Source: a virus (lineage: Duplodnaviria > Heunggongvirae > Uroviricota > Caudoviricetes). Taken from it: a stretch of 59,401 nt of DNA. Positions 1,089 to 47,614 of this stretch are shown here, piece after piece (position 1 is the first letter of the stretch; every line of letters starts with the position of its first letter). The notes under the pieces are model-generated. The model did no database searches. It was given only the letters and a program-made list of their open reading frames with translations, and had not been told where the DNA came from. Position numbers and translations under genes: made by a program. The DNA lies in the IMG/VR virus record IMGVR_UViG_3300021256_000055, positions 199,124 through 258,524 of that record; one strand, given 5' to 3'.

Positions 1089-3509
1089 TTATTTGTTTAT
1101 TGTATTATACGCTGCTGTGGCATCGGTTTCTAAGTTATCATTCATTACCCAAGATTGTTGTAACGCTGGCATATACCCTATAGCCTCTGTATGTTTAATT
1201 CTATTTGTTTCATCAGCAGATAATAAATTGGTACTATCTGGGAACTCACCAATAGCAAGATTTTTATAAATAAATGTAAATGTAGTAGTAACTAGGTCAC
1301 TATTAGATTGATTAAAAGATACGTCGCCGCCGCCAGTAAATAAAACATCCTCAAAAATAAAATATCTTTTAAGAGTATCATCTTTATTATAAAACATATT
1401 TCCAGGTAAAATTTTTACTAGAATACTGTATTTTTGATTTTCATTATGTACTCTAGATGGCCTATATCCTAAGTCTTTTTCACTATTTTCAGGTTGTGTA
1501 GTATCACCATTACTCGTTATATACCTATTTGCTAAGCCGGCCATACGATTGAATAGTCTCATATATTCCAAGCCATTATCCATTTCAAATGTTAGAGCTG
1601 AATTAAAATCATGCTGTAATTTATATCCAGGAACTATATATCTTTGATTTAAAAAGCTATATTCAATTGTATCCGATTTTAAGTCGGGTATTGATACAGA
1701 TGCTACTCTCGTAGTAAAATCACTATAGAGATCAAGCATAGACTTAGTAGTAGTAGGAAGGCCCTCAGCTATAAGTTTTGCTTCTGGATTACTACTGCCA
1801 TCTGTATAGAATTTTTTATAAACTTTAGGAGCAGTAGACAAAGATAATAATTTTCGAACTTCTCCTGTATTATTGGATTCTATGATATAAATATCATACA
1901 TATTTGTCATAAAATCTGGACCAGATGCTATAATATCTCTAATAGCAGAGTTAACATAAGTATGGTCTGTTGCCTCAGATTTTATAAGTTTATTCATGCT
2001 AGCTATACGACCAATAGCGAATAAACTATGATTAGTATTAGATGGGATAGTTTCATTACTGGAAGAAATTGTGCCAGTAGTTCTCCTACCTTTCTTAGAA
2101 TACATTGTGAAGCCAATAGAAGTTGCAACATGCAATTTTCTATCTACTACAGCTTCTTTAAGATTAAAGGATGTAGTAGTTTGTAAATCCATTTCGGATT
2201 TTATCATAAATCCAGTTTTATGGGAATTATTGATTGACCTACCAAAAGATGTAGAAAAATGATTATTTGTAGATGCGTCTCTATACATTTTATAAATAAC
2301 ATCACCTATAAATCCTTCACCTACTGGAAGTCCTCCAAACCATCTACCATAATCAACATCAAAAGCATGAGTTAAGTATGGTTTACCCTCATCCCAAGCA
2401 ATAAAATCATCTTGCTTATAGGATTTCCAAGTAGTATTTTCAATTGTTAAATTTCCTATAGCTCTATTCGCAGCAGCTATCGCATTTTTAGATAATGCGC
2501 CGCCATGTCTGAGTTTATAGGATGGTTTGTTGTTTACTTCAATTTTTTCTAAATATTTTAAGAATTCCGGAATAACGGATACTATTTCAGAGGTATTATC
2601 ACCTTCACCAAGTACATGTATTACTCCATAACCTGCAGCTGGGTCTTCCTTAAAATTATTTATTAGAGGGTCCTTTTCCTCCATTAGAGTTTTAGATTTT
2701 GATCTAGGCGCTACTTCTGCATCAGCTTTCGCAACTGATGTACCCGTTTGTATAACTCTATTCTTTTTAGTAGCTTTATTAACTCCCCAAAAAACATATT
2801 TTGTATGTTTTAATATTTCCTTATTTTTACTTTTTGTTGTGGCCTCAGTAAATTCTTTTAATGCGTTCGTATCTTGAACTAAGTCAAGCTGTTGTATTAT
2901 TAGTACATTATCAGCATCTGCGGAATATTTTGATAAAGCCTCATTTGTTTTATTCCCAAATGCTTCCGCTAGAGTAAATCCATCTGTAGTAAAATATTCT
3001 GCGTAGTCACTCTTATTCTTATTTGCTAAAGATGACATAGTAACCGGGTCATAAGACGTAAATGCAGCACTATGATTTTCAATAAAGCTAAAATTAGTTG
3101 ACCATTTTTCAAATGGCTTTATAGTAGAAAATTTATCATTGTAATTATAAACTATTGAAGCAGAAGTTAGCTTTGGTAGCTCTCGTGAAAGAAACGAATC
3201 TATTTCTTTTTCATTATATTTTTTAAGAGCATTCTTATTTAATGCCTCTAAATTGGTTTTTCCTTTATTTAATCGTTTTAATAATTCTAATGCAGTAGCT
3301 CTATCTAGTTCATGATTGCTATTTGTAAAAGGCTTTGCTTTTTGGGGTGTTGAAATATATGAGGGTTTAGCATTTAATTTTTTATCTATATAATATGACA
3401 CATCTCCAGAAAGCTCTTTAGAAATTGTAGCTTTATTATTTTCTTTTTGAGAAGAGTTTGTTTGTTTAATAGATTCTTTTATTTTTTTAGAGTCCGGACC
3501 AATAGTCAT
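1089..3509 (-). CDS. 806-aa structural protein with C-terminal tail-tube-like (gp19/gp48/gp54-type) domain
   Basis: C-terminal YFIFEDVLFTGGGDVSFNQSNSDLVTTTFTFIY resembles the tube C-terminal hairpin of neighbour 3592..4206. Confidence 0.55.
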   Translation of the reverse strand: MTIGPDSKKIKESIKQTNSSQKENNKATISKELSGDVSYYIDKKLNAKPSYISTPQKAKPFTNSNHELDRATALELLKRLNKGKTNLEALNKNALKKYNEKEIDSFLSRELPKLTSASIVYNYNDKFSTIKPFEKWSTNFSFIENHSAAFTSYDPVTMSSLANKNKSDYAEYFTTDGFTLAEAFGNKTNEALSKYSADADNVLIIQQLDLVQDTNALKEFTEATTKSKNKEILKHTKYVFWGVNKATKKNRVIQTGTSVAKADAEVAPRSKSKTLMEEKDPLINNFKEDPAAGYGVIHVLGEGDNTSEIVSVIPEFLKYLEKIEVNNKPSYKLRHGGALSKNAIAAANRAIGNLTIENTTWKSYKQDDFIAWDEGKPYLTHAFDVDYGRWFGGLPVGEGFIGDVIYKMYRDASTNNHFSTSFGRSINNSHKTGFMIKSEMDLQTTTSFNLKEAVVDRKLHVATSIGFTMYSKKGRRTTGTISSSNETIPSNTNHSLFAIGRIASMNKLIKSEATDHTYVNSAIRDIIASGPDFMTNMYDIYIIESNNTGEVRKLLSLSTAPKVYKKFYTDGSSNPEAKLIAEGLPTTTKSMLDLYSDFTTRVASVSIPDLKSDTIEYSFLNQRYIVPGYKLQHDFNSALTFEMDNGLEYMRLFNRMAGLANRYITSNGDTTQPENSEKDLGYRPSRVHNENQKYSILVKILPGNMFYNKDDTLKRYFIFEDVLFTGGGDVSFNQSNSDLVTTTFTFIYKNLAIGEFPDSTNLLSADETNRIKHTEAIGYMPALQQSWVMNDNLETDATAAYNTINK

Positions 3510-3547
3510 AAATCAATTAGTAAAAAATTAAGTAGATGCGAAAATAA

Positions 3548-3572
3548 AAGGCTCCTCTTTTGAGGAGCCTCT
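3548..3572. terminator. Intrinsic terminator hairpin
   Basis: AGGCTCCTC-TTTT-GAGGAGCCT with flanking A tract, downstream of the tail tube gene. Confidence 0.75.
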
Positions 3573-3591
3573 ATTGAGCTAAGTAGTTTTA

Positions 3592-4206
3592 TTAAACTGC
3601 ACCACCTGAGCCTGTACCAGTAATACCAGTACCATTGTAGAATGGATAATCACAGTCGCCAAACTTAAATGATACAGGATATGTAATTGCTGCGCCACCG
3701 TCAGTCTTAAACTGTGGCTGACCAACCTTAGATACCCAAACATCATAGAATGTCCAAGTAGGGTTTGCGTCACCAGTAATAGAACCATCGTCAGCTTTAT
3801 AAATATCACCAGTAGATGTACCATTGTATGCGCCAGAAAGTGCTGTAACTTTAACTGTACCAAGAGCTGCTGCCCAGTTAGCAACACCACCATTTACAGG
3901 GTCTGTAACCATCATCTCCCAGTTTACAAACTCACCATAAAGTGCATATGCTGCATCAAGTACGAATGTAAGCTCGAATTCACGGTTAAATGTCTGCTTT
4001 GAAGCAGGACGCTTCATAGTAACACCATGATATGAAATATCATAACCATCATTAGCCGCATCAGGAATGGTAAAGCCATCTACACGAGTAGTAACAACGG
4101 AACCGCCATCAGCCCAAGGGAACTGAATGCTAACATCAAACATGTTGTCCATGGCGTCGGCGCCACGGTTAACTAATGCCTGAATAGCTGTAGAATTTGC
4201 TGCCAT
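3592..4206 (-). CDS. Tail tube protein (T4 gp19-like)
   Basis: 204 aa with tube pattern: N.F.V.I..P, FTIP, YHG...P....F, F.LTF, W...V.D, WTFYDVWVSKVGQPQF...YPVSFKF. Confidence 0.8.
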   Translation of the reverse strand: MAANSTAIQALVNRGADAMDNMFDVSIQFPWADGGSVVTTRVDGFTIPDAANDGYDISYHGVTMKRPASKQTFNREFELTFVLDAAYALYGEFVNWEMMVTDPVNGGVANWAAALGTVKVTALSGAYNGTSTGDIYKADDGSITGDANPTWTFYDVWVSKVGQPQFKTDGGAAITYPVSFKFGDCDYPFYNGTGITGTGSGGAV

Positions 4207-4312
4207 TTTATTTCTCCTATAGAAGTTTAATTAGAATATATTCTAATGTAAATTAGTTATATTTTAATTGTCTAAATTAGGAGATTTATGATAATATATA
4301 ATATTAGGTATT

Positions 4313-4588
4313 TTATATTTGATGTGTCATCAATTTATTATGCAGAGTCTTAAAGCAGGCTCTAGCATATTGTAGAACCTTATCTTTAGTGGTATCTGTC
4401 CAAATAAATACTTGGGATTCTACTATATGTCCCTCTGTATTTAATCGTGCTACCAAAATAGCGTTACTTTCATTCTCCATCGTGCAAAGGCAGACGGACT
4501 CACCATCACTTCTAGATTTGTGCTTAAGGATTCGATAATTTAGAATTTCTAAGTCCTTTATAGATCCAATTGGTGCTTTTTTCCGCAT
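4313..4588 (-). CDS. Hypothetical protein
   Basis: 91-aa ORF; CTAATT 4 nt upstream of ATG. Confidence 0.6.
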   Translation of the reverse strand: MRKKAPIGSIKDLEILNYRILKHKSRSDGESVCLCTMENESNAILVARLNTEGHIVESQVFIWTDTTKDKVLQYARACFKTLHNKLMTHQI

Positions 4589-4625
4589 AAAAAATTAGCT
4601 GCAGATAACACTGCAGCTTTTCCTT

Positions 4626-5093
4626 TTATTTAGATTGTTTATTAAGATGCTCGATATAGGTAAATAGCTGTTGATTATAGATACCAACGCCATTATTTAA
4701 GTCTGACTGTAGAGCTGCAAAGCTTTTTACAATAGCCTTAAAATATGTATCTCGCTGTCTTTCTGATTTTTCTTTGGCGTCCTTACAAGCAGCTAAACGT
4801 TGGTTATCCTTTTTAAGTGCTTCTGTATCATATGTTGCAACTGTTTGCGCCATAACTGCTGGTAAGCCATATGTAGAACTATGCCTATCTGGCTCATTCC
4901 ATCTATTAAAGATATCCGCATATTCAATATTTGCATCAGTATTCTCTTCAACAATAGAACGATATGCAATTAAGGATTGTTCAAGCATTTTAAGATGTTC
5001 AAGCCCACTATTTACGGATGCGATAAGGTTTTCTTTAGTTGCTTGAATTGCGCTAACATCTCCCTTATTTAAGGAGTCTGGTACATATGCCAT
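4626..5093 (-). CDS. Hypothetical coiled-coil protein
   Basis: 155-aa helical ORF coupled to 5097..5564. Confidence 0.7.
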   Translation of the reverse strand: MAYVPDSLNKGDVSAIQATKENLIASVNSGLEHLKMLEQSLIAYRSIVEENTDANIEYADIFNRWNEPDRHSSTYGLPAVMAQTVATYDTEALKKDNQRLAACKDAKEKSERQRDTYFKAIVKSFAALQSDLNNGVGIYNQQLFTYIEHLNKQSK

Positions 5094-5096
5094 AGA

Positions 5097-5564
5097 TTAG
5101 TCCTCCTTAGTAAAGTGGAAGAGAGTATTTTTTGGGAATAGCCCAATAGATTCGCGAATAAGTAAATCAGAAGATGTTTCAGTAGATTCTACTACCATAA
5201 TTCCTCTTACTGGCGAAGGTACTTTACCACCATGAATCAAAACAGCATCTTCAGGAACAGCAGGCGCTTCTGGCTCAACATGTGTTGGATAAATAGCAGG
5301 CTTAGCTGCAATGTCAAAATTTGCTGAACCCATAGCATTTTTATCCGCTACTTCACGCTTTTTATAAGTAATAGTATCTGTAACTCCAGGAATATTTAAT
5401 TCTTTTACCTTCTCAAATCCTGCATCATTAGCATTATTATCTAATGCTGTAGTTGTAGCATTTAATGGAACAATAAAATATTTCAAGTTCATTCCTTCTG
5501 GAGCAACAAACTTAACTGATTTTAAGAAATCTTCTATATTATGTGGTTCTTGTGTTAGAAACAT
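5097..5564 (-). CDS. Hypothetical protein
   Basis: 155-aa ORF with GAGG SD. Confidence 0.7.
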   Translation of the reverse strand: MFLTQEPHNIEDFLKSVKFVAPEGMNLKYFIVPLNATTTALDNNANDAGFEKVKELNIPGVTDTITYKKREVADKNAMGSANFDIAAKPAIYPTHVEPEAPAVPEDAVLIHGGKVPSPVRGIMVVESTETSSDLLIRESIGLFPKNTLFHFTKED

Positions 5565-5688
5565 TATCGAAATCCTCTAATTACTAGCTAATATAATCTA
5601 TAAATTAGTTAGTAATCTAACTACTAATTAGATTAACGCTACTATAGAATATATAGTAGAGCTATTATATTTTATGGAGGAAATAGCC

Positions 5689-5856
5689 ATGGACAATACT
5701 AATGAGAATCTTCCTCAGGGTACCCTTACTCTCAACGGCCAGGTAATTACTGAGTCTCAGCTTCAGGCTGAAAAAGAGAAAGTAGAGGGTACTAATCAGG
5801 TAATTCGCGAAACTAAGCCTGGTGAAAATCACACACTTACAAGAATGCGCGGATAA
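5689..5856 (+). CDS. Small hypothetical protein (start moved to MDNTNE)
   Basis: GGAGG SD lies 8 nt before ATG 5689; the track ATG at 5674 overlaps the SD. Confidence 0.7.
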   Translation: MDNTNENLPQGTLTLNGQVITESQLQAEKEKVEGTNQVIRETKPGENHTLTRMRG

Positions 5857-5867
5857 TAGGAGTTTTA

Positions 5868-6839
5868 ATGTTATTTGATGCTATTTTTGTAGATGTATTT
5901 AACCTAGCTTATAGAAAAAGTAGCAGTGACGATTATAAAAAGATTGCAAATGAATTTATTGATTTCTTAAATAAAGAAATTAAAAGCCATCTTGACGGTG
6001 ATGGCACAATTTATTTACTTTTTGATCCACTACCAAAATCTGATTTAGGTTTATCAAAATCCTTTAGATATTCGCCTAGATTAAGAAATTCTATAGTGGG
6101 TTCATATAAGAAAAATCGTTTTGCTAATCCACATGTAGGTGAAGCAGTTAAATTATTAAGAAAATATTATGCCTTTAGAGGTGATAAAATTAAGATTTGC
6201 ATTTCTGATGAGCTTGAAGCCGACGATTTCGTAGAGCAGCTTCTTAAAAAAGAAACAGGAAATGTTGCCTTAATTACAACAGACTTTGACTGGGCACGTT
6301 ATATCTCGGACAGGGTTGTTATGATAAACAAAGGCTTCGATAAGCCTTATACCAAGGAACAATACTTAAAAGACAATGGATTGATTCCTACTATTGCGAC
6401 TGTAACATTAAAAAAAGCAATTTTTGGAGATCCATCCGATAATATTGATAGTATTTTTGAATCAAAGAAAAATTATTATGAAGGCAATATGAAAGATGTC
6501 GCAAATATGATGCTTTTATATATTGCTAAAGAAAATATGCCTTTTAAGGAAGTTGAAGAACATATCAGAACTGCTTCTTTCCAAACTTTATTCAAAATTA
6601 AAGATAAAAATCCATTAGAAGAATTTGAGTATCAGCTTATATCTGTTGACCCAAATGTGGGCTCGCCTTATAATACTCTAATAGATAATATTCGAGTTAT
6701 TAAGAGTCGTTGTGATAATATTGATAAATATATTCAATTTAAGCCAGAAGATAATAAGTATAATTTGCTAATGGAAAGTATGATGGGAAGAACACCAGCA
6801 ACTAAAAAATCTTTAACTTTTGGAACATTAAAAGCTTAA
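5868..6839 (+). CDS. 5'-3' exonuclease / T4 RNase H-like (PIN/FEN family)
   Basis: VDVFN, LLFD, Y...R, EADD, TTDFD and GDPSDNI acidic motifs. Confidence 0.85.
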   Translation: MLFDAIFVDVFNLAYRKSSSDDYKKIANEFIDFLNKEIKSHLDGDGTIYLLFDPLPKSDLGLSKSFRYSPRLRNSIVGSYKKNRFANPHVGEAVKLLRKYYAFRGDKIKICISDELEADDFVEQLLKKETGNVALITTDFDWARYISDRVVMINKGFDKPYTKEQYLKDNGLIPTIATVTLKKAIFGDPSDNIDSIFESKKNYYEGNMKDVANMMLLYIAKENMPFKEVEEHIRTASFQTLFKIKDKNPLEEFEYQLISVDPNVGSPYNTLIDNIRVIKSRCDNIDKYIQFKPEDNKYNLLMESMMGRTPATKKSLTFGTLKA

Positions 6840-6843
6840 AAAT

Positions 6844-6870
6844 AAAGCTCCTCATTTGAGGAGCTTTTTA
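6844..6870. terminator. Bidirectional intrinsic terminator
   Basis: AAAGCTCCTC-ATTT-GAGGAGCTTT between convergent genes; arms nearly identical to 3548..3572. Confidence 0.8.
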
Positions 6871-7290
6871 TTAGTCAAAATAAATTTCAGCAATATCTAG
6901 TTTATTTTCTTGAGCATTAATATAATTCACTATATAATCAGGATATATGCTTGGATATAACATAGGCATATGTATTCTATATGATATAACTTGTTTAGAT
7001 ATTAAATCTAATATATAATATGTATCACTATATATAGGTTTAGGGTCGCTTAAAAATCTAATATAGCCCTTAGAGTTTTTCACATAGTTAAGTCCTTGTG
7101 TTCGTAGTCTATTATTTACATCATCAATAATATTAAATGTTTCTATTTTAGAATTTTTATTATCTTTATTAAAGATAATCGTTCTATAAATACCCTCATA
7201 TTTATTTATATTATTATTATAATCTGTGGATTTTACATATCTAATATAGGGGAATTCTTTACTGACTGCTAGATTAATAATCTCTTTCAT
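6871..7290 (-). CDS. Hypothetical protein
   Basis: 139-aa ORF. Confidence 0.6.
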   Translation of the reverse strand: MKEIINLAVSKEFPYIRYVKSTDYNNNINKYEGIYRTIIFNKDNKNSKIETFNIIDDVNNRLRTQGLNYVKNSKGYIRFLSDPKPIYSDTYYILDLISKQVISYRIHMPMLYPSIYPDYIVNYINAQENKLDIAEIYFD

Positions 7291-7293
7291 ATT

Positions 7294-7905
7294 TCAATTA
7301 AAATAATCTACCTCCTCATCCTCAAAATTTTGGATTATTCTGCCCATATTATCTCTGTCTATTACGGTATAGCCTGCCATATAACCCGGCATCCAAATAT
7401 ATTTTGTTAAAAAGTCCTCTTCAGGTGCATTTATATTCCTTTTGATATATGTTCTATTTTTTAAGTAGTCCATATAAGTATCAGACCACGATGCTTGCTT
7501 TTTAGTGACCTCCATAGATTCTTTATACAAATCTAAGTTATAAGTATCATACTTAAATGGGCCATCATCATAAATTATATATGCAGTATCTTTAATAGAA
7601 GTTCTATATTCCTTAGGCGTAGTTTGACCTTTTTCTAAATCTGTAAGTTTTATGCAATCTGGAAAAAATAAACTATTACGAAGAATATGGTCACAAATAA
7701 TACTTTTAATTTCAAAAGGTACACAAAGAATAAATATAGTAAAATATGATAAGATAATAATTGTATGTATAGTAGCTGATAAATTAAGACGTTTTCCAAA
7801 AAAGAGATATACTAGCCAGGCTAGATTAAAGGGACACATAATATAAGCTAAAATACCACCTATCTTATTCCACTTTTTATAGTATTTTTCAGTCTTATTC
7901 TTCAT
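7294..7905 (-). CDS. Membrane protein with two TM segments; likely leaderless start
   Basis: Two hydrophobic stretches. ATG 7905 is preceded by CTATAC-N17-CATATT-ATAAAT, the same geometry as array promoters. Confidence 0.65.
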   Translation of the reverse strand: MKNKTEKYYKKWNKIGGILAYIMCPFNLAWLVYLFFGKRLNLSATIHTIIILSYFTIFILCVPFEIKSIICDHILRNSLFFPDCIKLTDLEKGQTTPKEYRTSIKDTAYIIYDDGPFKYDTYNLDLYKESMEVTKKQASWSDTYMDYLKNRTYIKRNINAPEEDFLTKYIWMPGYMAGYTVIDRDNMGRIIQNFEDEEVDYFN

Positions 7906-7972
7906 ATTTATAATATGCCAATTAAAACTTAAAAGTATAGACTTTTTATATTCAAAAAACATATTATATGAA

Positions 7973-8620
7973 ATGATAGTATTTTTAGATATAGATGGCG
8001 TTTTAGATTCATTAAATTGGTTTAAGAGTCCATTAAGAAGACTAAGAAAAAATTATCGTACCGAAATGGCAACTTATATAAGCCCAAGAAATCTTTTTTG
8101 GGTAAGTCTTTTTTGTAAAATTACAAAAGCAAAGGTTGTTCTTTCATCATCTTGGCGCTATGGGTGGAATGAGGATGGTACTATTTGTCAAGATAATAAA
8201 GGTCGTTCAGTAGTTCCAACAGATAAATTATTAAGAAAACATGGCATGCCAATTTATTCAGTTACACCAAGTGTAGCAGAATTAAAGAATGAATATGAAA
8301 TTGACTGGTCTATCGTACCTGATTCATTTATGCAGTTTCATGATGATGAAAAAAATGAATTGGTAATTTCTAAAGAAAAATTTATTAAGTATGCTCGTGG
8401 CGCTCAAATTTTAGCTTGGATAGAACAACATAATTATAATGATTATTTTCAAATTTTTGAAGATGATTATTCTGATGTAATTTGTTTTAAGTGTTTGGAT
8501 AAGCATACTATAAAGTCTCGATTCTATGGTAGAAACGCTGGTTTTGGATATAAACAATTTATAATTGCGATGAAAAGGTATAAAAAATGGATGAAGCAGA
8601 AAAAACAGAACAAAAACTAG
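7973..8620 (+). CDS. HAD-superfamily phosphatase (Swiss-Army-Knife RNA repair-like HAD)
   Basis: VFLDIDGVL motif I, VVLSSSWR, IFEDD motif IV. Confidence 0.8.
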   Translation: MIVFLDIDGVLDSLNWFKSPLRRLRKNYRTEMATYISPRNLFWVSLFCKITKAKVVLSSSWRYGWNEDGTICQDNKGRSVVPTDKLLRKHGMPIYSVTPSVAELKNEYEIDWSIVPDSFMQFHDDEKNELVISKEKFIKYARGAQILAWIEQHNYNDYFQIFEDDYSDVICFKCLDKHTIKSRFYGRNAGFGYKQFIIAMKRYKKWMKQKKQNKN

Positions 8621-8952
8621 CAGATGTAGTAAAATATGTAAAGCCAAAAATATCAATGCCACTTATAAAAATTTCTAAGTATAAAAAAGAATATGATTTA
8701 TGTAAAATTTTTTGTAAAGATAATAATGCAAATTCAACTGAGCATTATATTATAAGACCAGATTTAAATAAATCAAAAACTTATAATTATGATATTTATG
8801 AAAAGAATAAAGAAAAGCCTTTTTTAGGATTTAATGAATTTGCTGCAGTTCCTTCTCCAATGATGAATTATGAAGCGCATGAAAAATGGCATAAAGCAAT
8901 GGATGAAGTTAAGGAAATTGTAGAAGAATCTATAGGATATTTTAATGAATAA
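8587..8952 (+). CDS. Hypothetical protein
   Basis: Overlap-coupled in the + operon. Confidence 0.6.
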   Translation: MDEAEKTEQKLADVVKYVKPKISMPLIKISKYKKEYDLCKIFCKDNNANSTEHYIIRPDLNKSKTYNYDIYEKNKEKPFLGFNEFAAVPSPMMNYEAHEKWHKAMDEVKEIVEESIGYFNE

Positions 8953-9547
8953 TAATGGATTTGGACTTCTAGTAAAACAAGATAAGTCTCATAAAAGATG
9001 GTATAAAAATCTTTTTAAGATTCTTCTTAATAAAGATAGTATAGAATTAAATCATTTTACTGTAACAAAAAGCCAAGTTGATATAGAAAATAATGGTCGT
9101 TTAATAAAAACTATTGTATTCAATATTGTAGAAAAGGCTACAGGTGAACTATATCAGTTATATACTAATGGTCTACACTTTCCTTTTCAGGCTATGGATA
9201 ATATTAATAAAATCTGGCAAAGATTTATGAGTGATATAAATTTGAATATGAAAGAAGAAATAGTAAATATAAAAGCTTATGATAAAACATCTGAATATGA
9301 ACGAGCCAGAGATAATATAGTAAAAATGGCTAAGGTTGGCAGAAAATATATTTTTGAAGATTTTCAAATTGAGCTATACCCAAATTATATAGATGTATGG
9401 CATAATAACACGCCTCTATTTCAATGGACAATGTATTTTGTGGCAGGAAGCAAAGATGTAATAAAAGATACTGATATCAATGCTGTAATAACACGTTTAG
9501 CAAATATAGATACATATGATGATAGTACTGTATACTTTAATGATTAG
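8945..9547 (+). CDS. Hypothetical protein
   Basis: Overlap-coupled, 200 aa. Confidence 0.65.
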   Translation: MNNNGFGLLVKQDKSHKRWYKNLFKILLNKDSIELNHFTVTKSQVDIENNGRLIKTIVFNIVEKATGELYQLYTNGLHFPFQAMDNINKIWQRFMSDINLNMKEEIVNIKAYDKTSEYERARDNIVKMAKVGRKYIFEDFQIELYPNYIDVWHNNTPLFQWTMYFVAGSKDVIKDTDINAVITRLANIDTYDDSTVYFND

Positions 9548-9557
9548 GCGGTAAAAA

Positions 9558-9959
9558 ATGACTATAGAAGAATTCGATAAAATACAGAAAGAATATCGCC
9601 AGTATTATGATATTATGCTTGATTTAAATAAGGCAATTATGGATATTATTGATGTTCTAATTGGTCATTATAAAAAGTACCTTGAAATAATTAAAATTGA
9701 CCCAACTGTTACAGCTGACGGTCCCACTTTAGCAGTAGAGTTTACAGTAAATAAAAATGATTATATGGTATTCCAGATGTATAAAAAAGGTACACAAAAC
9801 ATATATAATGTTCTTGGCTTTGATAATCCACCACAAGACTGTTATCCCGAATATACAATATATAACGGATTCTTAACAGAAGATATGTTTAATGCTTTTA
9901 ATGATTATATGTGCAGAATAACAGGAAAGAAATTAAAACCTATTGAGTTTATTAAGTAA
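9558..9959 (+). CDS. Hypothetical protein
   Basis: 133 aa, followed by a hairpin. Confidence 0.65.
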   Translation: MTIEEFDKIQKEYRQYYDIMLDLNKAIMDIIDVLIGHYKKYLEIIKIDPTVTADGPTLAVEFTVNKNDYMVFQMYKKGTQNIYNVLGFDNPPQDCYPEYTIYNGFLTEDMFNAFNDYMCRITGKKLKPIEFIK

Positions 9960-9961
9960 AT

Positions 9962-9988
9962 AAAAAGCCAGCTTAAATGCTGGCTTTA
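9962..9988. terminator. Bidirectional terminator
   Basis: AAAGCCAGC-TTAAAT-GCTGGCTTT between convergent genes. Confidence 0.75.
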
Positions 9989-10048
9989 TTATTATTTTAA
10001 TTAATATGTACTTTTAAGGTGTATACATATATCTATATAAAAAAGGTA

Positions 10049-10906
10049 CTATTCTGTTCTAATAATTGAAACTTGACCATGTACGATTTTGTCTGGATAT
10101 GTCTTATAATCACTATATATATCATGATTATCGTAAGGTACTACTTTAATTGTAAGTGTATCACTAGTTTGTAAAGTATACGTAAATTCTCCCTCGTCAT
10201 CATCATGTGAGTTTTTAAGTTCACCATTTATATATACATAGAAGTAGGTATCTCCATCTTCTCTAGTGTCCGTTAATCGTACTGTATACTCGCCATTTTT
10301 TGTAATTATATAATTATGAACTCCAGTAATATTCACTTCGCTGATATTATCATTAAGAATATCATCAGCTTCTATCAGATTAAATTTTCTTAAAAGGTCT
10401 ATATTATTAAATAGATCAGGCCTTAGTAAGTCAGGTTTACAGATTATATCCTCAAGTTTACCACAGTTTTTAAACATGCCATCTTCTATATAATCAACGC
10501 TATCAGGAATAGTGACTTTTTTTAAGTTTGGGAAAAATTTAAGACCTAAATATTGACCACCATAGATATTACCATATGTATCATATGTATCAATATAACT
10601 AGTACTTAAACGTTTAATACCATCAGGAAAAACAATTTCTTCTACACAATCTGGCCATATTCCATTAGAATAGTTCATAACAAAAAATGGTTGATTCTCA
10701 GCTACAATACTCTTAAAAACTTCTAGGGTATCAATAACTTTTGTAGTAGACTTTAATCTAATGAGACTTAAATCTTGTGAATCGTCTAATTGGAATCCGG
10801 TATCTTTAACATCGGATACATTATATTCAGTATAAGTTATACCACCGTCTAAGCTTATACTGATTTTTCCGTCGTTTGTTTTTAGTGTATCAAAGATTAT
10901 TTTCAT
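10049..10906 (-). CDS. BspA-type leucine-rich repeat protein
   Basis: VEEIVFPDGIKRL and LKKVTIPDSVDYIEDGMFKNCGKLEDI are LRR_5-type repeats. Confidence 0.7.
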   Translation of the reverse strand: MKIIFDTLKTNDGKISISLDGGITYTEYNVSDVKDTGFQLDDSQDLSLIRLKSTTKVIDTLEVFKSIVAENQPFFVMNYSNGIWPDCVEEIVFPDGIKRLSTSYIDTYDTYGNIYGGQYLGLKFFPNLKKVTIPDSVDYIEDGMFKNCGKLEDIICKPDLLRPDLFNNIDLLRKFNLIEADDILNDNISEVNITGVHNYIITKNGEYTVRLTDTREDGDTYFYVYINGELKNSHDDDEGEFTYTLQTSDTLTIKVVPYDNHDIYSDYKTYPDKIVHGQVSIIRTE

Positions 10907-10946
10907 AACAAATTAGTGAGATAAATAATTAAGGCCTAATTATAAA

Positions 10947-11723
10947 ATGGTAAATCCCACAATTTTTAATTTTTATGACTACCTAAAAAATCCCATGGCG
11001 GATTATTGTGTTTCAAAATATCAGTCAAAAACAATTTATACTTTAGAAGATTTTGAAGAATTAACAAGAACATTAAGATATACCCGCTTTGCAATAAAAA
11101 ATAATAAGAAACAATCTATTGGAGACCAAATACGGCTTTTATTAGCAACTAAAACCAATGACTTTTTATATCTAGACGCAGACTGTTACATTCCTGATTT
11201 TACAGAAATCATAGCTAATAAGAATTGTACTGCGTATATACCATATATTAAAAAAATAAATAATGGCTCATTTTTCTATACAGATAAATCTTGCGAGTTT
11301 AATAATTATTACTTTAATTTATATGAAACAGTAGATGAGGAAGACTTATGGTTATCAAACTTGGACTTCTTTAATAAGCACCCATTTAAGCAAGATTTTG
11401 AACATCATAAGTCGGGAGATATGAACTTATTAGATTCTGTAAAACTAAGACATTTTTATATAAGCCATTTTTATAGATTTAAGAGGCTATTTTCAGATAT
11501 AGATAAAGTATATTATAGCTTTGATAATTTTAACGCAGCTGTACCAGTTCTATGGATGTTTGACCATTGTCCATTACATAATCAAATTATAAAAATATTT
11601 GGAAAAGAAATCTGGTTCTATGAGACTGTATGTGACTTTATTCCACAGGATGATCTAGTAAGGCTATTTAAGGAACAAATGAATTATACATATCAAAAGA
11701 ACCTTAAGTTTATTGAAGTATAA
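10947..11723 (+). CDS. Putative glycosyltransferase (GT-A, DxD)
   Basis: FLYLDADC DxD motif followed by INNGSFF. Confidence 0.5.
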   Translation: MVNPTIFNFYDYLKNPMADYCVSKYQSKTIYTLEDFEELTRTLRYTRFAIKNNKKQSIGDQIRLLLATKTNDFLYLDADCYIPDFTEIIANKNCTAYIPYIKKINNGSFFYTDKSCEFNNYYFNLYETVDEEDLWLSNLDFFNKHPFKQDFEHHKSGDMNLLDSVKLRHFYISHFYRFKRLFSDIDKVYYSFDNFNAAVPVLWMFDHCPLHNQIIKIFGKEIWFYETVCDFIPQDDLVRLFKEQMNYTYQKNLKFIEV

Positions 11724-11819
11724 AAAGATAATATAAACAGGCATGTTTCCATTGTAATATAGCAATAAGATTGAATATAGAATATTCTTATATAGAGATA
11801 TCATTAGATAACTTTAAAA

Positions 11820-11970
11820 GAATATAGATATAATACAATATATAAATGTATATAAGTAATCTATATAGATAGATATACTATATAAGCATAACGTAATATA
11901 TAGATATAATATAGTATATAGATATATGTATAGATGCAATATATAGGTACAATATAGTCTATATATACAA
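11820..11970. repeat. Low-complexity TA-rich tract
   Basis: About 150 bp of mostly alternating TA with recurring TATAGAT/ATATAG units. Confidence 0.8.
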
Positions 11971-12405
11971 AATTTTGTGCAAGGGCTTGCATGTATTTTT
12001 TTCAAAAAAGCCACCCCCGGGGGCCTAGGTATACATTTTTCCAGGAAAGAGAGACAAAAAGGGCCTAGGAGAGTTTGAACTACATAAAAGAAGTAGAAAA
12101 AAGCCCCTCTGGAAAAATCTTGTGCACAGCATCATACTCAAAAACTGAGACAGGCCCACCCCCGAGTCAACTCAATCCACCATAAAAAAGTCACCAAAAT
12201 TTCCAGCCACCAAAAATGTTTGAACCAGATAACTTTTCCAGACGAGAAGTCTGGTAGGATAAAATGCTAGGTACCATTCTTCCTGGTGGCTTTTCCAGGT
12301 GAGGAGCTAGGTATATATGTCTCCTGACTTAACTTTCTAGTCTAGAGGAGGATGGGGAGAGGATAGTAGATGGGAGCTTAGCCCCCTCTATGTGCATATA
12401 CCCTG

Positions 12406-12708
12406 CTAGCCTACCATGTTAGGAACACCAGCGTTGGCACAGGCTATATCCCTCAGGGTAGTTTTCCAAGCCGAGAGCTCCTTAGCACGGCCATAGTCTG
12501 GACCGGACAGCCAGCCATAGCTTGCTTTAGATGCGAGCTGGTCGGCCTCATCCCTGGTTTTCTCCAGCTGTTCTGCTTTGTCATAATCACCAGCTTCCCA
12601 AGCATCGTGGATCATGTTGGAGAGTTTGTCGTGGCAAGATTCCAGGTTGAATCTGATATTTTCTGATACTGGGTAGTGCTTAACTCCATTGATAATTTTA
12701 AGTGCCAT
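12406..12708 (-). CDS. Hypothetical protein; last gene of the array
   Basis: AGGAGG SD; 100 aa. Confidence 0.75.
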   Translation of the reverse strand: MALKIINGVKHYPVSENIRFNLESCHDKLSNMIHDAWEAGDYDKAEQLEKTRDEADQLASKASYGWLSGPDYGRAKELSAWKTTLRDIACANAGVPNMVG

Positions 12709-12774
12709 AGGTGATTCCTCCTAAAGGAATTGAATAGAATTCGTAATACCCGGAGTTTATTCCGGGTGGAAGAC

Positions 12775-15886: not shown

Positions 15887-16025
15887 AATTTAACCTCACT
15901 AAGTTTATTTTGTTTACAATAATAATATGTTAATAGTTCTATAGAAGTATAAAATAATAGAAAAACTCTTCTAATCTGACAGACTAGAAGAGTTTAGTAA
16001 ACAAATATTTATGAGGTGAACATTA

Positions 16026-16412
16026 TTAAAATCTGAATGATCCGTGTCCGAACTTATGAATCTCTTCAAGATGAGCTTTCTCAGCTGCAACATAGTCGTA
16101 GTCAGCAACTTTGATTTCTTCAAGACGCTTGATAAGTGAACGAACAAGAATATCCTGTTTAAGATCGAAGCAAGTGAACGACTGTTGAACTCTTCGAAGT
16201 TCATTTGTAAAAGACTCGATCGCTTTGTCAAATCCTTTATCCCATCCACCGTCCAGTTTCATTACTAAGTGAACGTATCTTGGCTTGTTTTCACAACAAG
16301 TAAGATTCACAGTTACTAAATCAAATCCGTGAGCCCAACTCTGAACTACTGATCCGATTTCTTTTATCGGGTTGAGAACATTTTCTAGTCTTAAGTGGTC
16401 TGCACAAGTCAT
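16026..16412 (-). CDS. Hypothetical protein (start moved to MTCADH)
   Basis: GGAGG SD and own promoter. Confidence 0.75.
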   Translation of the reverse strand: MTCADHLRLENVLNPIKEIGSVVQSWAHGFDLVTVNLTCCENKPRYVHLVMKLDGGWDKGFDKAIESFTNELRRVQQSFTCFDLKQDILVRSLIKRLEEIKVADYDYVAAEKAHLEEIHKFGHGSFRF

Positions 16413-16529
16413 AGTCTTAACCTCCAACCAGGTATTATTCGTTTACAGTTATAATATGTAGACAGTTCTATAGAAGTATAAAGCTAAAGTAAAACTTTCT
16501 AGTCTTATTTAACTAGAAAGTTTTTTAAA

Positions 16530-19093: not shown

Positions 19094-19289
19094 AAAAAAT
19101 GCCCACTCTATTTCTAAAGTGGGCTTATCACTAATAGGCAGTGTAAGAACTACAGGGTGGTCGAATGTCCCGTCCAACTACTTCGTGCTCCCGGTTGCCG
19201 TTCAGTAGCCTCGCTCGCCTTTCAATTACTTGTCTACTTTCACCCGCTAAAGTGATTTCAACTTTCATCTACTTTCGTTTCGCTCTTAC
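19094..19289 (-). ncRNA. Candidate ~195-nt small RNA
   Basis: Array promoter (+1 at 19289), no SD or ORF, ends in the GCCCAC/GTGGGC hairpin plus U tract. Confidence 0.6.
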
Positions 19290-26770: not shown

Positions 26771-27050
26771 AATTTTAACCTCACTAAGTTTTATTCGTTT
26801 ACATATATAATATGTATTTAGTATTAGAAAAGTACAAAAACTCTACAGACTTATCTGATTTAAAAAAAGAAAGGACAAGCCAACGACTTGTCCTTTCAAA
26901 ATGTAAACAAATAACACAGGAGGTCATCTGGGAAAGCGGTCTTAACTCGTCGTAGCCTTGGTGGGCTTTTACCTCACCAACTAGCTGATAAGATGCAGGC
27001 CATTGCGTATCCTTGCACGTTACCGGCTCCCTTGATAATTCTGTGAATAG

Positions 27051-27125
27051 CCAAGATGGTAGGACTTGAACCTACACCTACAGACACCCGAAGTGTCGCG
27101 CTTCTACCAATTAAGCTACATCCTG
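27051..27125 (-). tRNA. tRNA-Arg(UCG), no encoded CCA
   Basis: Acceptor CAGGATG/CATCTTG; D arm GCTT/AAGC; anticodon loop CT-TCG-GG; T arm GTAGG-TTCAAGT-CCTAC. Confidence 0.85.
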
Positions 27126-34646: not shown

Positions 34647-34799
34647 AAGGATTTCCTCCGTTTTATTTGTTACATATATAATATGTAAATAGACCTATAG
34701 AAGTATAAAAACTCTACAGACTTATCTGATTTAAATAAAAAAGACCTGAGACTATTAACAATAATCTCAGGTCAATGTAAACAAATAACTAGAGGTCGT

Positions 34800-35462
34800 C
34801 TAGAGTTTTACAATGTCATATCCGAGTGAGTTTGCAAGAGCACGAAGATTTTTGATTACTTCAGACTCGTCAGCTGAGCTTTCTGAAGAGCCACTTGAAG
34901 TTCCACCTACCACTATACCAAGGAATCCGCGGTCTGGATCAATTCCTTTTTTGTATGCAACACTCATTGCAGAATAGGCAGTACGGCTTACACTTGCGCT
35001 GCTACTTGAGCGTGACAAAATTCCAAGAATTTGAGCTGGAATAATTGCCATAGCTTCTGGATCAGTGTAATCTGTTTCAGATACTGTATCAGCAAGTTTG
35101 TCCTGTTCGTCTTCAGTCAATCCTTTCAAAAACTTAATAGTTTTTTCAAGGTCATCTCCGACAATTTTTTTAGGATCGAGCTGTCCGAGCCAGCAATAAA
35201 CATTACTTGTATTAAACATCTTCCAGCAGTCATTAAACTCTGGTAAACCTTCACCACGTTTTGGCATATGGTCAAGAGGCTCATAACTTCTCAACTGATA
35301 AAGTACATCGTCAATAGAATGATTTGAATTGAATAAGACCTTTCCAAGTGAGATACCACCAAAGCGGATTCTCTTGTTGCCTTCAAAAGTCTGCCCAGTA
35401 ACAGCTACGATTTTGATGGATTTTTTGCCCATCTGATTTTTGTATGCAAAAAGTTCAATCAT
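34800..35462 (-). CDS. Hypothetical protein, 220 aa
   Basis: GGAG SD and promoter; 3' UTR carries an anti-leader element. Confidence 0.8.
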   Translation of the reverse strand: MIELFAYKNQMGKKSIKIVAVTGQTFEGNKRIRFGGISLGKVLFNSNHSIDDVLYQLRSYEPLDHMPKRGEGLPEFNDCWKMFNTSNVYCWLGQLDPKKIVGDDLEKTIKFLKGLTEDEQDKLADTVSETDYTDPEAMAIIPAQILGILSRSSSSASVSRTAYSAMSVAYKKGIDPDRGFLGIVVGGTSSGSSESSADESEVIKNLRALANSLGYDIVKL

Positions 35463-39557: not shown

Positions 39558-39629
39558 GCCCTATGAGAAGATTTGAACTTCTGACCTCTGGACTTCACGC
39601 CCAGTGTTCCGCCACAGAACTTCATAGGA
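39558..39629 (-). tRNA. Atypical tRNA-like element (anticodon reads UGA with G33)
   Basis: All four stems pair (TCCTATG/CATAGGG, GTTC/GAAC, CTGGG/TCCAG, AGAAG/CTTCT); TTCAAAT T loop; AGGTC variable loop. Confidence 0.65.
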
Positions 39630-45420: not shown

Positions 45421-47028
45421 CTAGTCATTTTTACCTAAGGTTACACCCTTGACTTTCTGAAACAAAGTTTCTTTATCATAGATTCCATCATCAATCTGGA
45501 ACTCATAAGCTTTCTGAAGCATCTTCTTAAAGATTGGTCCAGGTTTTTTTCCAAACTTGATCAAGTCATCTCCCGTCAAAACCGGCTTTGGCATATCCAG
45601 CTCTCTGAGCTCATCAATTTTTACTGTTCTTCTACGAACACCAAATGTAAGCTCATTTGTATGAATAGTTACTTCACGCTGGAGGGAACCTAAGATTCCA
45701 TCCCAAGCATCATCAACAGTCTTAAGACAACCTGTTTCATCTGCTTGTGCAAGCACAATCAAATCATCAAATGGCGTCTTTTTAATAAACTGCCAAATTT
45801 TAGTTGGTGACTTCATCTTCATCAACTGGTGCATTCTCATATGATTTTCTGTCATGGCTCTAACGAACTCACAATCATCATTTGGTAAACCAAGTGATTT
45901 ACAGAAGTCATAAGCAATTGGTGCTCCAACAACATCATGGTCTGAAACCTTTGGAATTGATTCAAAGAACTCTTTTCCATTGATTTCAAAAGTATTTTCT
46001 TTTGTACCTAAGTCTGAATGAGCTTTACCAATATCATGCAAGTAAGCTGACAAAATCATTAAGAATCGTTTATGTTCATCATCCTCATTTGAGATGCACT
46101 TAAACATATTCTTAACTACTTTCATAGTATGGTCATAAACTGTACCATTACCCAGGATTTCAAAATCTTTAGCTATGTGAAGCAAGTCCAGAGTATACTG
46201 ATTATTGATTGTAGCAACTCTTGTTAATCCACCATCCATATGGAACTTTACTAAAGCACCTTCTGAATGCCATTTAAATGACTGCTTTACTCTAAGCATT
46301 TCACCAAAGACTTTGCTCATACCAATAAGCTTCCAAATTGGAGCCATTAAATTCTGAACTTTTTCATCTATAAAGAACTTACCACCAAGAATCTTAGTGA
46401 GCTCTTTAAGCTGACGCTCTTTTGATACTTCGGAGAAGTCTAAGCCGTCAACAAAAGCTGCAAATTTAATCTGCTCTTTATTTGACATGGTAACTGGTAC
46501 AAATCCACGGCTTGATGCAAAGCGTACATATCTGAAGTATCTCAATGGGTCCTCAGACAATCTGTCTTTATAGTCCCCAATGAAGCGGAGTACTTTCTGC
46601 TTAATGTCCATTTCACCAAGCTCAGTAGGATCAATGATATTTCCATCAATATCTTCGTACAAAGCATTTACGGTGAAGTCACGACGCATAGCATCTTCTT
46701 TCAAGCTTGTAGTAAAGCCAACTTCAGGATGACGACCTTTTGTTTTATCAACACGTAATGTTGCAATTTCAACTTCTTCAATAGTTCCATCTGAGAACTT
46801 AATCAAAGGCATTGTAACACCAAACTCTTCTGAATTATCAGAAACATTAGAAAAGTCAGAAAAGATTTTATGCAAATCAGCCGGTGTTGCATCAGTACAA
46901 ACATCAAAGTCGTGAGGTTCCTTCCCTAATAATGCATCGCGTACACAACCGCCAACAAACCAAGCGCCAAATCCAGCATCAATAATAGGCTTGAGAACGA
47001 GTGTTTTTAATTCTGATTTAATATCCAT
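45421..47028 (-). CDS. cca: tRNA nucleotidyltransferase (class II CCA-adding enzyme) with HD domain
   Basis: VGGCVRD..LG..P.DFD, RRDFTVNAL, EDPLRYFR, H.EG..Y.HT, LHDIGK, H...GA and C-terminal LTGDDL..G.KPGP motifs. Confidence 0.9.
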   Translation of the reverse strand: MDIKSELKTLVLKPIIDAGFGAWFVGGCVRDALLGKEPHDFDVCTDATPADLHKIFSDFSNVSDNSEEFGVTMPLIKFSDGTIEEVEIATLRVDKTKGRHPEVGFTTSLKEDAMRRDFTVNALYEDIDGNIIDPTELGEMDIKQKVLRFIGDYKDRLSEDPLRYFRYVRFASSRGFVPVTMSNKEQIKFAAFVDGLDFSEVSKERQLKELTKILGGKFFIDEKVQNLMAPIWKLIGMSKVFGEMLRVKQSFKWHSEGALVKFHMDGGLTRVATINNQYTLDLLHIAKDFEILGNGTVYDHTMKVVKNMFKCISNEDDEHKRFLMILSAYLHDIGKAHSDLGTKENTFEINGKEFFESIPKVSDHDVVGAPIAYDFCKSLGLPNDDCEFVRAMTENHMRMHQLMKMKSPTKIWQFIKKTPFDDLIVLAQADETGCLKTVDDAWDGILGSLQREVTIHTNELTFGVRRRTVKIDELRELDMPKPVLTGDDLIKFGKKPGPIFKKMLQKAYEFQIDDGIYDKETLFQKVKGVTLGKND

Positions 47029-47487: not shown

Positions 47488-47614
47488 AGTAAGATAATTA
47501 GCTTAATAAAAAAGAAAGATCCACACAACGCATGGATCTTTCAGTGAGGTAACTATGCTTTGATTAAAACAAAACTAAAATCTTCAATAGAAGATTAAAG
47601 ATTTTAATTATGCC

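Follow-up and report, generated by a model that had tools for sequence, protein, structure and literature searches.

The locus and its gene array

The window (the whole stretch of DNA analysed, 59,401 nt, to which all positions refer unless a related locus is named) comprises the final 59 kb of a 258.5-kb contig, approximately 88% complete, from a giant uncultured phage. From 12.9 kb onward, small minus-strand genes form an array in which each gene has its own copy of one promoter, and a promoter scan identified 73 near-identical copies. Approximately 35 of the 73 array messages open with an identical stretch of 11 nt (the core) followed by a Shine-Dalgarno (SD) sequence. The array is rich in palindromic promoter and terminator repeats, and the promoter palindrome contains the core as one of its halves. 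As no match to RNA polymerase beta or sigma-70 region 2 was found in a search of the 88%-complete contig, the array is probably read by the host polymerase, and its architecture suggests that its genes are early genes. The phage HisRS, which is closest to Bacillota clusters, is the sole pointer to the host.

One array member, a 128-aa ORF (16026-16412, minus strand) with 62 homologues and no Pfam, PHROG or Atlas assignment, is preceded by an array promoter at 16447-16484 (-35-like box, invariant ACATAT-ATA core, PWM score 42.6), with a predicted start at 16446 and a 5′ leader at 16413-16446. On the minus strand, 7 nt past its stop codon, begins an inverted copy of such a leader: a 22-mer located on the plus strand at 15997-16018, exactly where the preliminary description had placed it, and unique at up to three mismatches. 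The minus strand carries an anti-SD arm (16013-16018) and an 11-nt anti-core arm (15997-16007), which is complementary to nt +1 to +11 of the core leaders and identical in 11 related contigs. One U separates this anti-leader from a 15-bp hairpin (15995-15963) with a 3-nt loop and a U-rich tail, predicted to form an intrinsic terminator of the usual array type (15955-15995, minus strand). The seed thus lies within the predicted transcribed 3′ end and adjoins the terminator, in agreement with the earlier proposal that the transcript ends in an anti-leader followed by a terminator. In structure predictions, the isolated 76-nt 3′ end has a fold with z = -4.4 in which the anti-leader stays single-stranded. 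The next cassette (15887-15955, minus strand), consisting of a promoter and a core leader with a predicted start at 15917, is a possible read-through partner.

At gathering scores, the Rfam covariance models yielded no family for the module region and three tRNA matches only in the window. A plus-strand gene beginning at 15997 was considered and rejected, as the SD-like motif is followed by no start codon and the scan showed no plus-strand array promoter.

Predicted transcription start sites

The position called +1 is a purine in 73/73 array promoters, and -1 is a pyrimidine in 67 of the 73. Six promoters in the genome have an ATG exactly at +1, each opening an ORF of 77-203 aa with no SD-led alternative; ATGs at the adjoining offsets nearly all close at once. 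Eleven leaders start with the SD itself. Given that a register two bases downstream is also compatible with the -10 box, the start-site call is probable rather than certain. The preliminary description had held that complementarity begins at the G called +1 and that this independently supports the start site. In the 15997 copy the complementarity does stop at that G, but a mismatch at -1 is what chance alone would probably give and in the four other module types the match runs on for 1-4 nt into the promoter, so that the 15997 copy offers weak support of this kind; the purine/pyrimidine bias and the six leaderless genes in register support the start site better than does the module boundary. 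Leaderless genes whose ATG coincides with the promoter +1 lie at 7905, 17571, 24782 and 35785 (minus strand) in the window and would be expected to escape the modules.

Recurrence and conservation of inverted leaders

When the leader pattern was defined as the 11-nt core with at most one mismatch followed by GAGG or GGAG within 12 nt, exactly three inverted copies were found in the 258.5-kb contig (15997, 26903 and 34777), all on the transcribed strand, with a terminator following after 1-5 nt. In Markov shuffles of the array, the mean was 0.04-0.07 inverted copies and three were never reached. Plus-strand matches to the core inside promoters (e.g., 15610 and 36522) were left uncounted, as they originate from the promoter palindrome and have no SD arm.

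Relatives, gathered by homologue look-ups and a pattern scan of related loci, brought the strict matches, counted over the window together with these loci, to 25, on unrelated carriers (protein genes and tRNA-like clusters). All 25 have a common layout, wherein an anti-SD arm, a 3-6-nt spacer and an 11-nt anti-core arm are followed within 1-5 nt by a terminator hairpin of -16 to -24 kcal/mol. They fall into five types: the 15997 copy, a module in the 3′ UTR of a 220-aa gene (type 2), one at the end of a tRNA-like trailer (type 3), one found in L014 and L015 (type 4), and one that terminates a tRNA-like cluster in L020. Four modules occur in a single 27-kb contig. A pattern match in L013 was judged to be due to chance. 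Scans of IMG/VR by protein and by pattern returned no close relative, and GenBank phages gave no match.

The type 2 module together with its terminator (34737-34795, minus strand) forms the whole 3′ UTR of the gene at 34800-35462. The module's 19 positions are all invariant at 54-80% coding identity (approximately 1e-5 at the rate of the gene body, relatedness ignored), and the seed is more conserved than its flanks; the carrier's own leader, the downstream gene and the terminator (down to 42% identity, with six compensatory pairs) all vary while the module stays fixed. The last 30 coding bases of the gene (ten codons; 34796-34830, minus strand) are 93-97% conserved at the DNA level and are predicted to be able to fold with the module, exposing the anti-SD in a loop, so the invariance may be partly structural; the module's U-rich centre is fixed although that fold leaves it unpaired.

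Type 3, with its terminator at 26860-26923 (minus strand), and type 4 both reside on carriers whose leaders have no core. An additional element at 47543-47557 (minus strand) consists of an anti-SD and anti-start-codon arm before a terminator, with no core arm; L020 has, at 1224-1252, an element with the same beginning that then continues into a full core arm.

History of the 15997 copy

Besides the window, the 15997 module is carried by L016 and L045-L054, whose carrier genes show 15-21 differences from that of the window over 387 nt. L008 and L043, at 30-39 differences over the same length (approximately 90% identity), and all more distant homologues lack the module, for which reason a recent gain appears to be its simplest history. 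A quick scan of phages that have this gene with other promoter types (L001, L003 and L009) likewise found no comparable module; L009 has, at 2279-12749, its own small-gene array with a different repeated promoter and without the shared leader core or module. Within its clade, the 15997 copy is conserved no better than its flanks. An A-to-G variant of the anti-SD arm occurs in 9-10 of ten relatives, where wobble preserves pairing. The complementarity to a GAGGUG SD that had been pointed out is therefore present in the window and not conserved, and leaders with GAGGUG near their start are the short, coreless ones.

The most informative feature of this clade is a leader swap. The carrier has a core leader in the window and in L016, and in the ten others (L045-L054) it has a short leader that begins at the SD and contains no core; the core arm of the module is nevertheless unchanged in these ten contigs, which are closely related and represent roughly one event. 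A core arm without a partner on its own message favours pairing in trans, and the contribution of the 15997 copy is that this swap tells trans from cis action. Own and downstream leaders show no covariation with the module, and a wobble-bias test on leader substitutions (42/81 tolerated) was confounded by transition bias and shared descent.

Predicted pairing

All pairing values given here are equilibrium predictions in which ribosomes are not included. In simple duplex predictions, the 15997 copy pairs with the 73 array leaders at a median of -11.0, as against -8.8 for SD-preserving shuffles and -7.4 for other start regions of the phage, and the predicted pairing thus exceeds background, as the antisense proposal demanded. 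Sister copies reach -14.2 and -18.8, the 15997 copy being the weakest of the three. When structure is taken into account, median binding is -13.0 kcal/mol for the 35 core leaders, -8.0 for the other array leaders and -6.9 for 73 non-array SD start regions; the contrast in dimer energy between core leaders and non-array start regions (p 1e-11) is partly circular, given that the motif was defined through complementarity to the core. Assuming the predicted start site, nt 1-6 of the core leaders are paired at 0.94, and the SD is paired in 23 of 35. Pairing of the SD is 0.63 for the 15997 copy and reaches 0.5 in non-array start regions, so SD pairing alone is not specific. The genome-wide target ranking that had been suggested placed array leaders at seven of the top 30 predicted sites (rough expectation, approximately 0.4). 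For the 15997 copy, the carrier's own leader comes 9th among the 73 and the leader downstream comes 23rd; taken overall, own leaders rank 9-66 and downstream leaders 15-39.

Folding of full-length messages depends on the carrier. In the window, the core arm is predicted to be closed by the message's own 5′ end (P 0.99), as it is in L016, with the anti-SD arm mostly free, which weakens predicted trans binding to -11.7. The 5′ end is likewise closed in type 2 carriers (0.79-0.89), and read-through folds pair the module with the downstream leader. For L047, in which the core arm is predicted to be open, core leaders are bound approximately 6 kcal/mol better than with the window carrier, and for the coreless form (L045-L054) pairing with the own 5′ end is 0.0 and predicted core-leader binding is -17.7.

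Proposed function and rival explanations

Position, recurrence, conservation of the type 2 sister copy and pairing energies support the antisense model of the preliminary description, although the 15997 copy is the weakest binder and is not ancient. We consider it probable that the modules act as antisense elements in trans, whether to repress or to protect, and we lean towards the narrower reading that they form a trans-acting brake on a gene class defined by its leader. According to this proposal, the module, acting either as the end of the carrier mRNA or as a processed fragment, would bind core-leader messages in trans across nt +1 to +11 and the SD, blocking loading of the 30S subunit and thereby damping or timing expression of the class. 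Messages that are leaderless or have a short leader would largely escape. If the module is expressed as predicted and pairs in vivo, repression would be a likelier outcome than protection, since no type has lost the anti-SD arm and the element at 47543-47557 retains nothing but the arms against the SD and start codon. The main difficulty is one of dose: as approximately three module promoters face 35 targets with the same promoter class, the modules must be far more stable than their targets, act catalytically or trigger decay.

Pairing in trans might instead shield the covered 5′ end from 5′-end-dependent decay of the RNase J1 type, so that messages are stabilised or stored. In line with such protection, nt 1-6 are the best-paired positions (0.94, with the SD at 0.63 for the 15997 copy), Bacillota furnish precedents in the hly 3′ UTR with prsA2 (PMC8722363) and RoxS with yflS (PMC5419742), and the phage HisRS is closest to Bacillota clusters; protection alone would nevertheless need no anti-SD arm, which all five types retain at leader-like spacing and which remains at 47543-47557 without a core arm, and Bacillota are no more than a putative host group; we regard this outcome as rather improbable. 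It is unlikely that the modules limit only a single gene in cis, by folding onto their own leader in the manner of icaR (PMC3868564) or onto the downstream leader after read-through. The closed 5′ ends of the window, L016 and type 2 carriers and the read-through folds fit such an action; against it, carriers in L045-L054 and those of types 3 and 4 keep the module even though their own leaders have no core, L054 has a downstream gene without a leader, the one in L020 lies 301 nt off, and neither own nor downstream leaders stand out in rank or covary with the module. Where a carrier has a core leader, folding in cis may bring additional self-limitation, but it could not be the general function.

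Two further explanations dispense with pairing as the function of the 15997 copy. This copy could have arisen recently by a nearly neutral inverted duplication of a leader, even were its sisters functional, and its confinement to gene copies within approximately 5% of one another, its conservation equal to that of the flanks and the palindromic repeats of the array, which could seed inversions, are all compatible with this history. We nevertheless judge it quite improbable, since the copy has the exact layout of the family, no promoter remnant and a terminator 1 nt away, its sole substitution preserves pairing, and none of the 11 related contigs of the clade lacks it. Very improbable is a role in DNA, in which the copy would be a second, inverted operator bound by a protein that recognises the start-site motif of array promoters; that the match runs 1-4 nt into the untranscribed promoter in four of five types, and that the core doubles as half of the promoter palindrome, would suit an operator, but the anti-SD arm and the constant terminator position on the transcribed side would be left unexplained, and the spacing between the module and the next start site is variable (79-104 and 301 nt).

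A broader extension of the trans brake, which we offer tentatively and hold to be doubtful as yet, is that the common 11-nt start acts as an RNA barcode marking a gene class, and that portable anti-barcode modules silence or time the class in trans. Unrelated mRNAs and tRNA-like transcripts would then have acquired such modules at their 3′ ends on repeated occasions, and a gene could enter or quit the regulon by a leader swap, as the carrier gene did between strains.

Relation to known systems

The individual parts of the proposed brake have precedents; the combination in a phage is unreported in the literature found, and our literature searches returned no description of such modules. Phage antisense RNAs that pair with phage messages include c4 of P1 and CI of P4. 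The OOP antisense RNA of lambda also pairs with a phage message (PMC12197685). Unlike the module, c4, CI and OOP are each encoded by a single gene and act on one or two targets in the control of lysis and lysogeny. A close likeness is seen in Listeria, in which the hly 3′ UTR pairs in trans with the 5′ end of prsA2, stabilising it (PMC8722363); here, too, the 3′ UTR of one mRNA is predicted to pair in trans with the 5′ end of another, but in a phage, with one seed on several unrelated carriers, approximately 35 targets sharing one leader rather than a single target, and the SD covered as well. In Staphylococcus aureus, an anti-SD motif in the icaR 3′ UTR blocks translation initiation of its own message and the ectopic 3′ UTR is ineffective (PMC3868564). 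The 15997 motif is comparable in lying in a 3′ UTR and, for this genome, in being predicted to pair with the 5′ UTR of its own message, and differs in that the module persists where the own leader loses the core (L045-L054, types 3 and 4). RoxS of Bacillus subtilis, a stand-alone host sRNA, binds the 5′ end of yflS and activates it (PMC5419742); as in RoxS-yflS and hly-prsA2, the predicted pairing extends to the very 5′ end of the target (P 0.94 for nt 1-6, predicted start), but the phage module has no promoter of its own.

The turning-down of messages from dozens of strong promoters in large lytic phages is understood mainly through proteins, such as the T4 endoribonuclease RegB, which cuts GGAG and inactivates early phage mRNAs class-wide at the SD (PMC9409239). 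RegB is a functional analogue, with a protein nuclease in place of the RNA agent proposed here, whose specificity would come from the 11-nt leader. Placed on ordinary 3′ ends, an RNA brake on a whole class of messages would, if true, be a new way to achieve this, and a barcode regulon would be the RNA counterpart of RegB; a compact seed-and-leader pair would also be on offer for multi-gene control.

Other features of the array

Between a tRNA-like element and the 26903 module lies a 47-nt stretch (26946-26992, minus strand), conserved in L015, that matches a 16S rRNA helix (Rfam SSU model, E 5e-6) and includes a 35-mer identical to the 16S of Flexilinea and other bacteria. Two tRNA-like genes have irregular anticodon arms (minus strand): that at 27051-27125 has a bulged stem, and that at 39558-39629 has a Ser anticodon and a short variable arm. 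Full promoters without an SD in the first 40 nt occur at 19289, 28007, 39712, 48431, 53603 and 55651 (minus strand) and may give rise to non-coding transcripts. Lastly, a tRNA nucleotidyltransferase with an HD domain is encoded inside the array (45421-47028, minus strand), near a non-coding RNA region.
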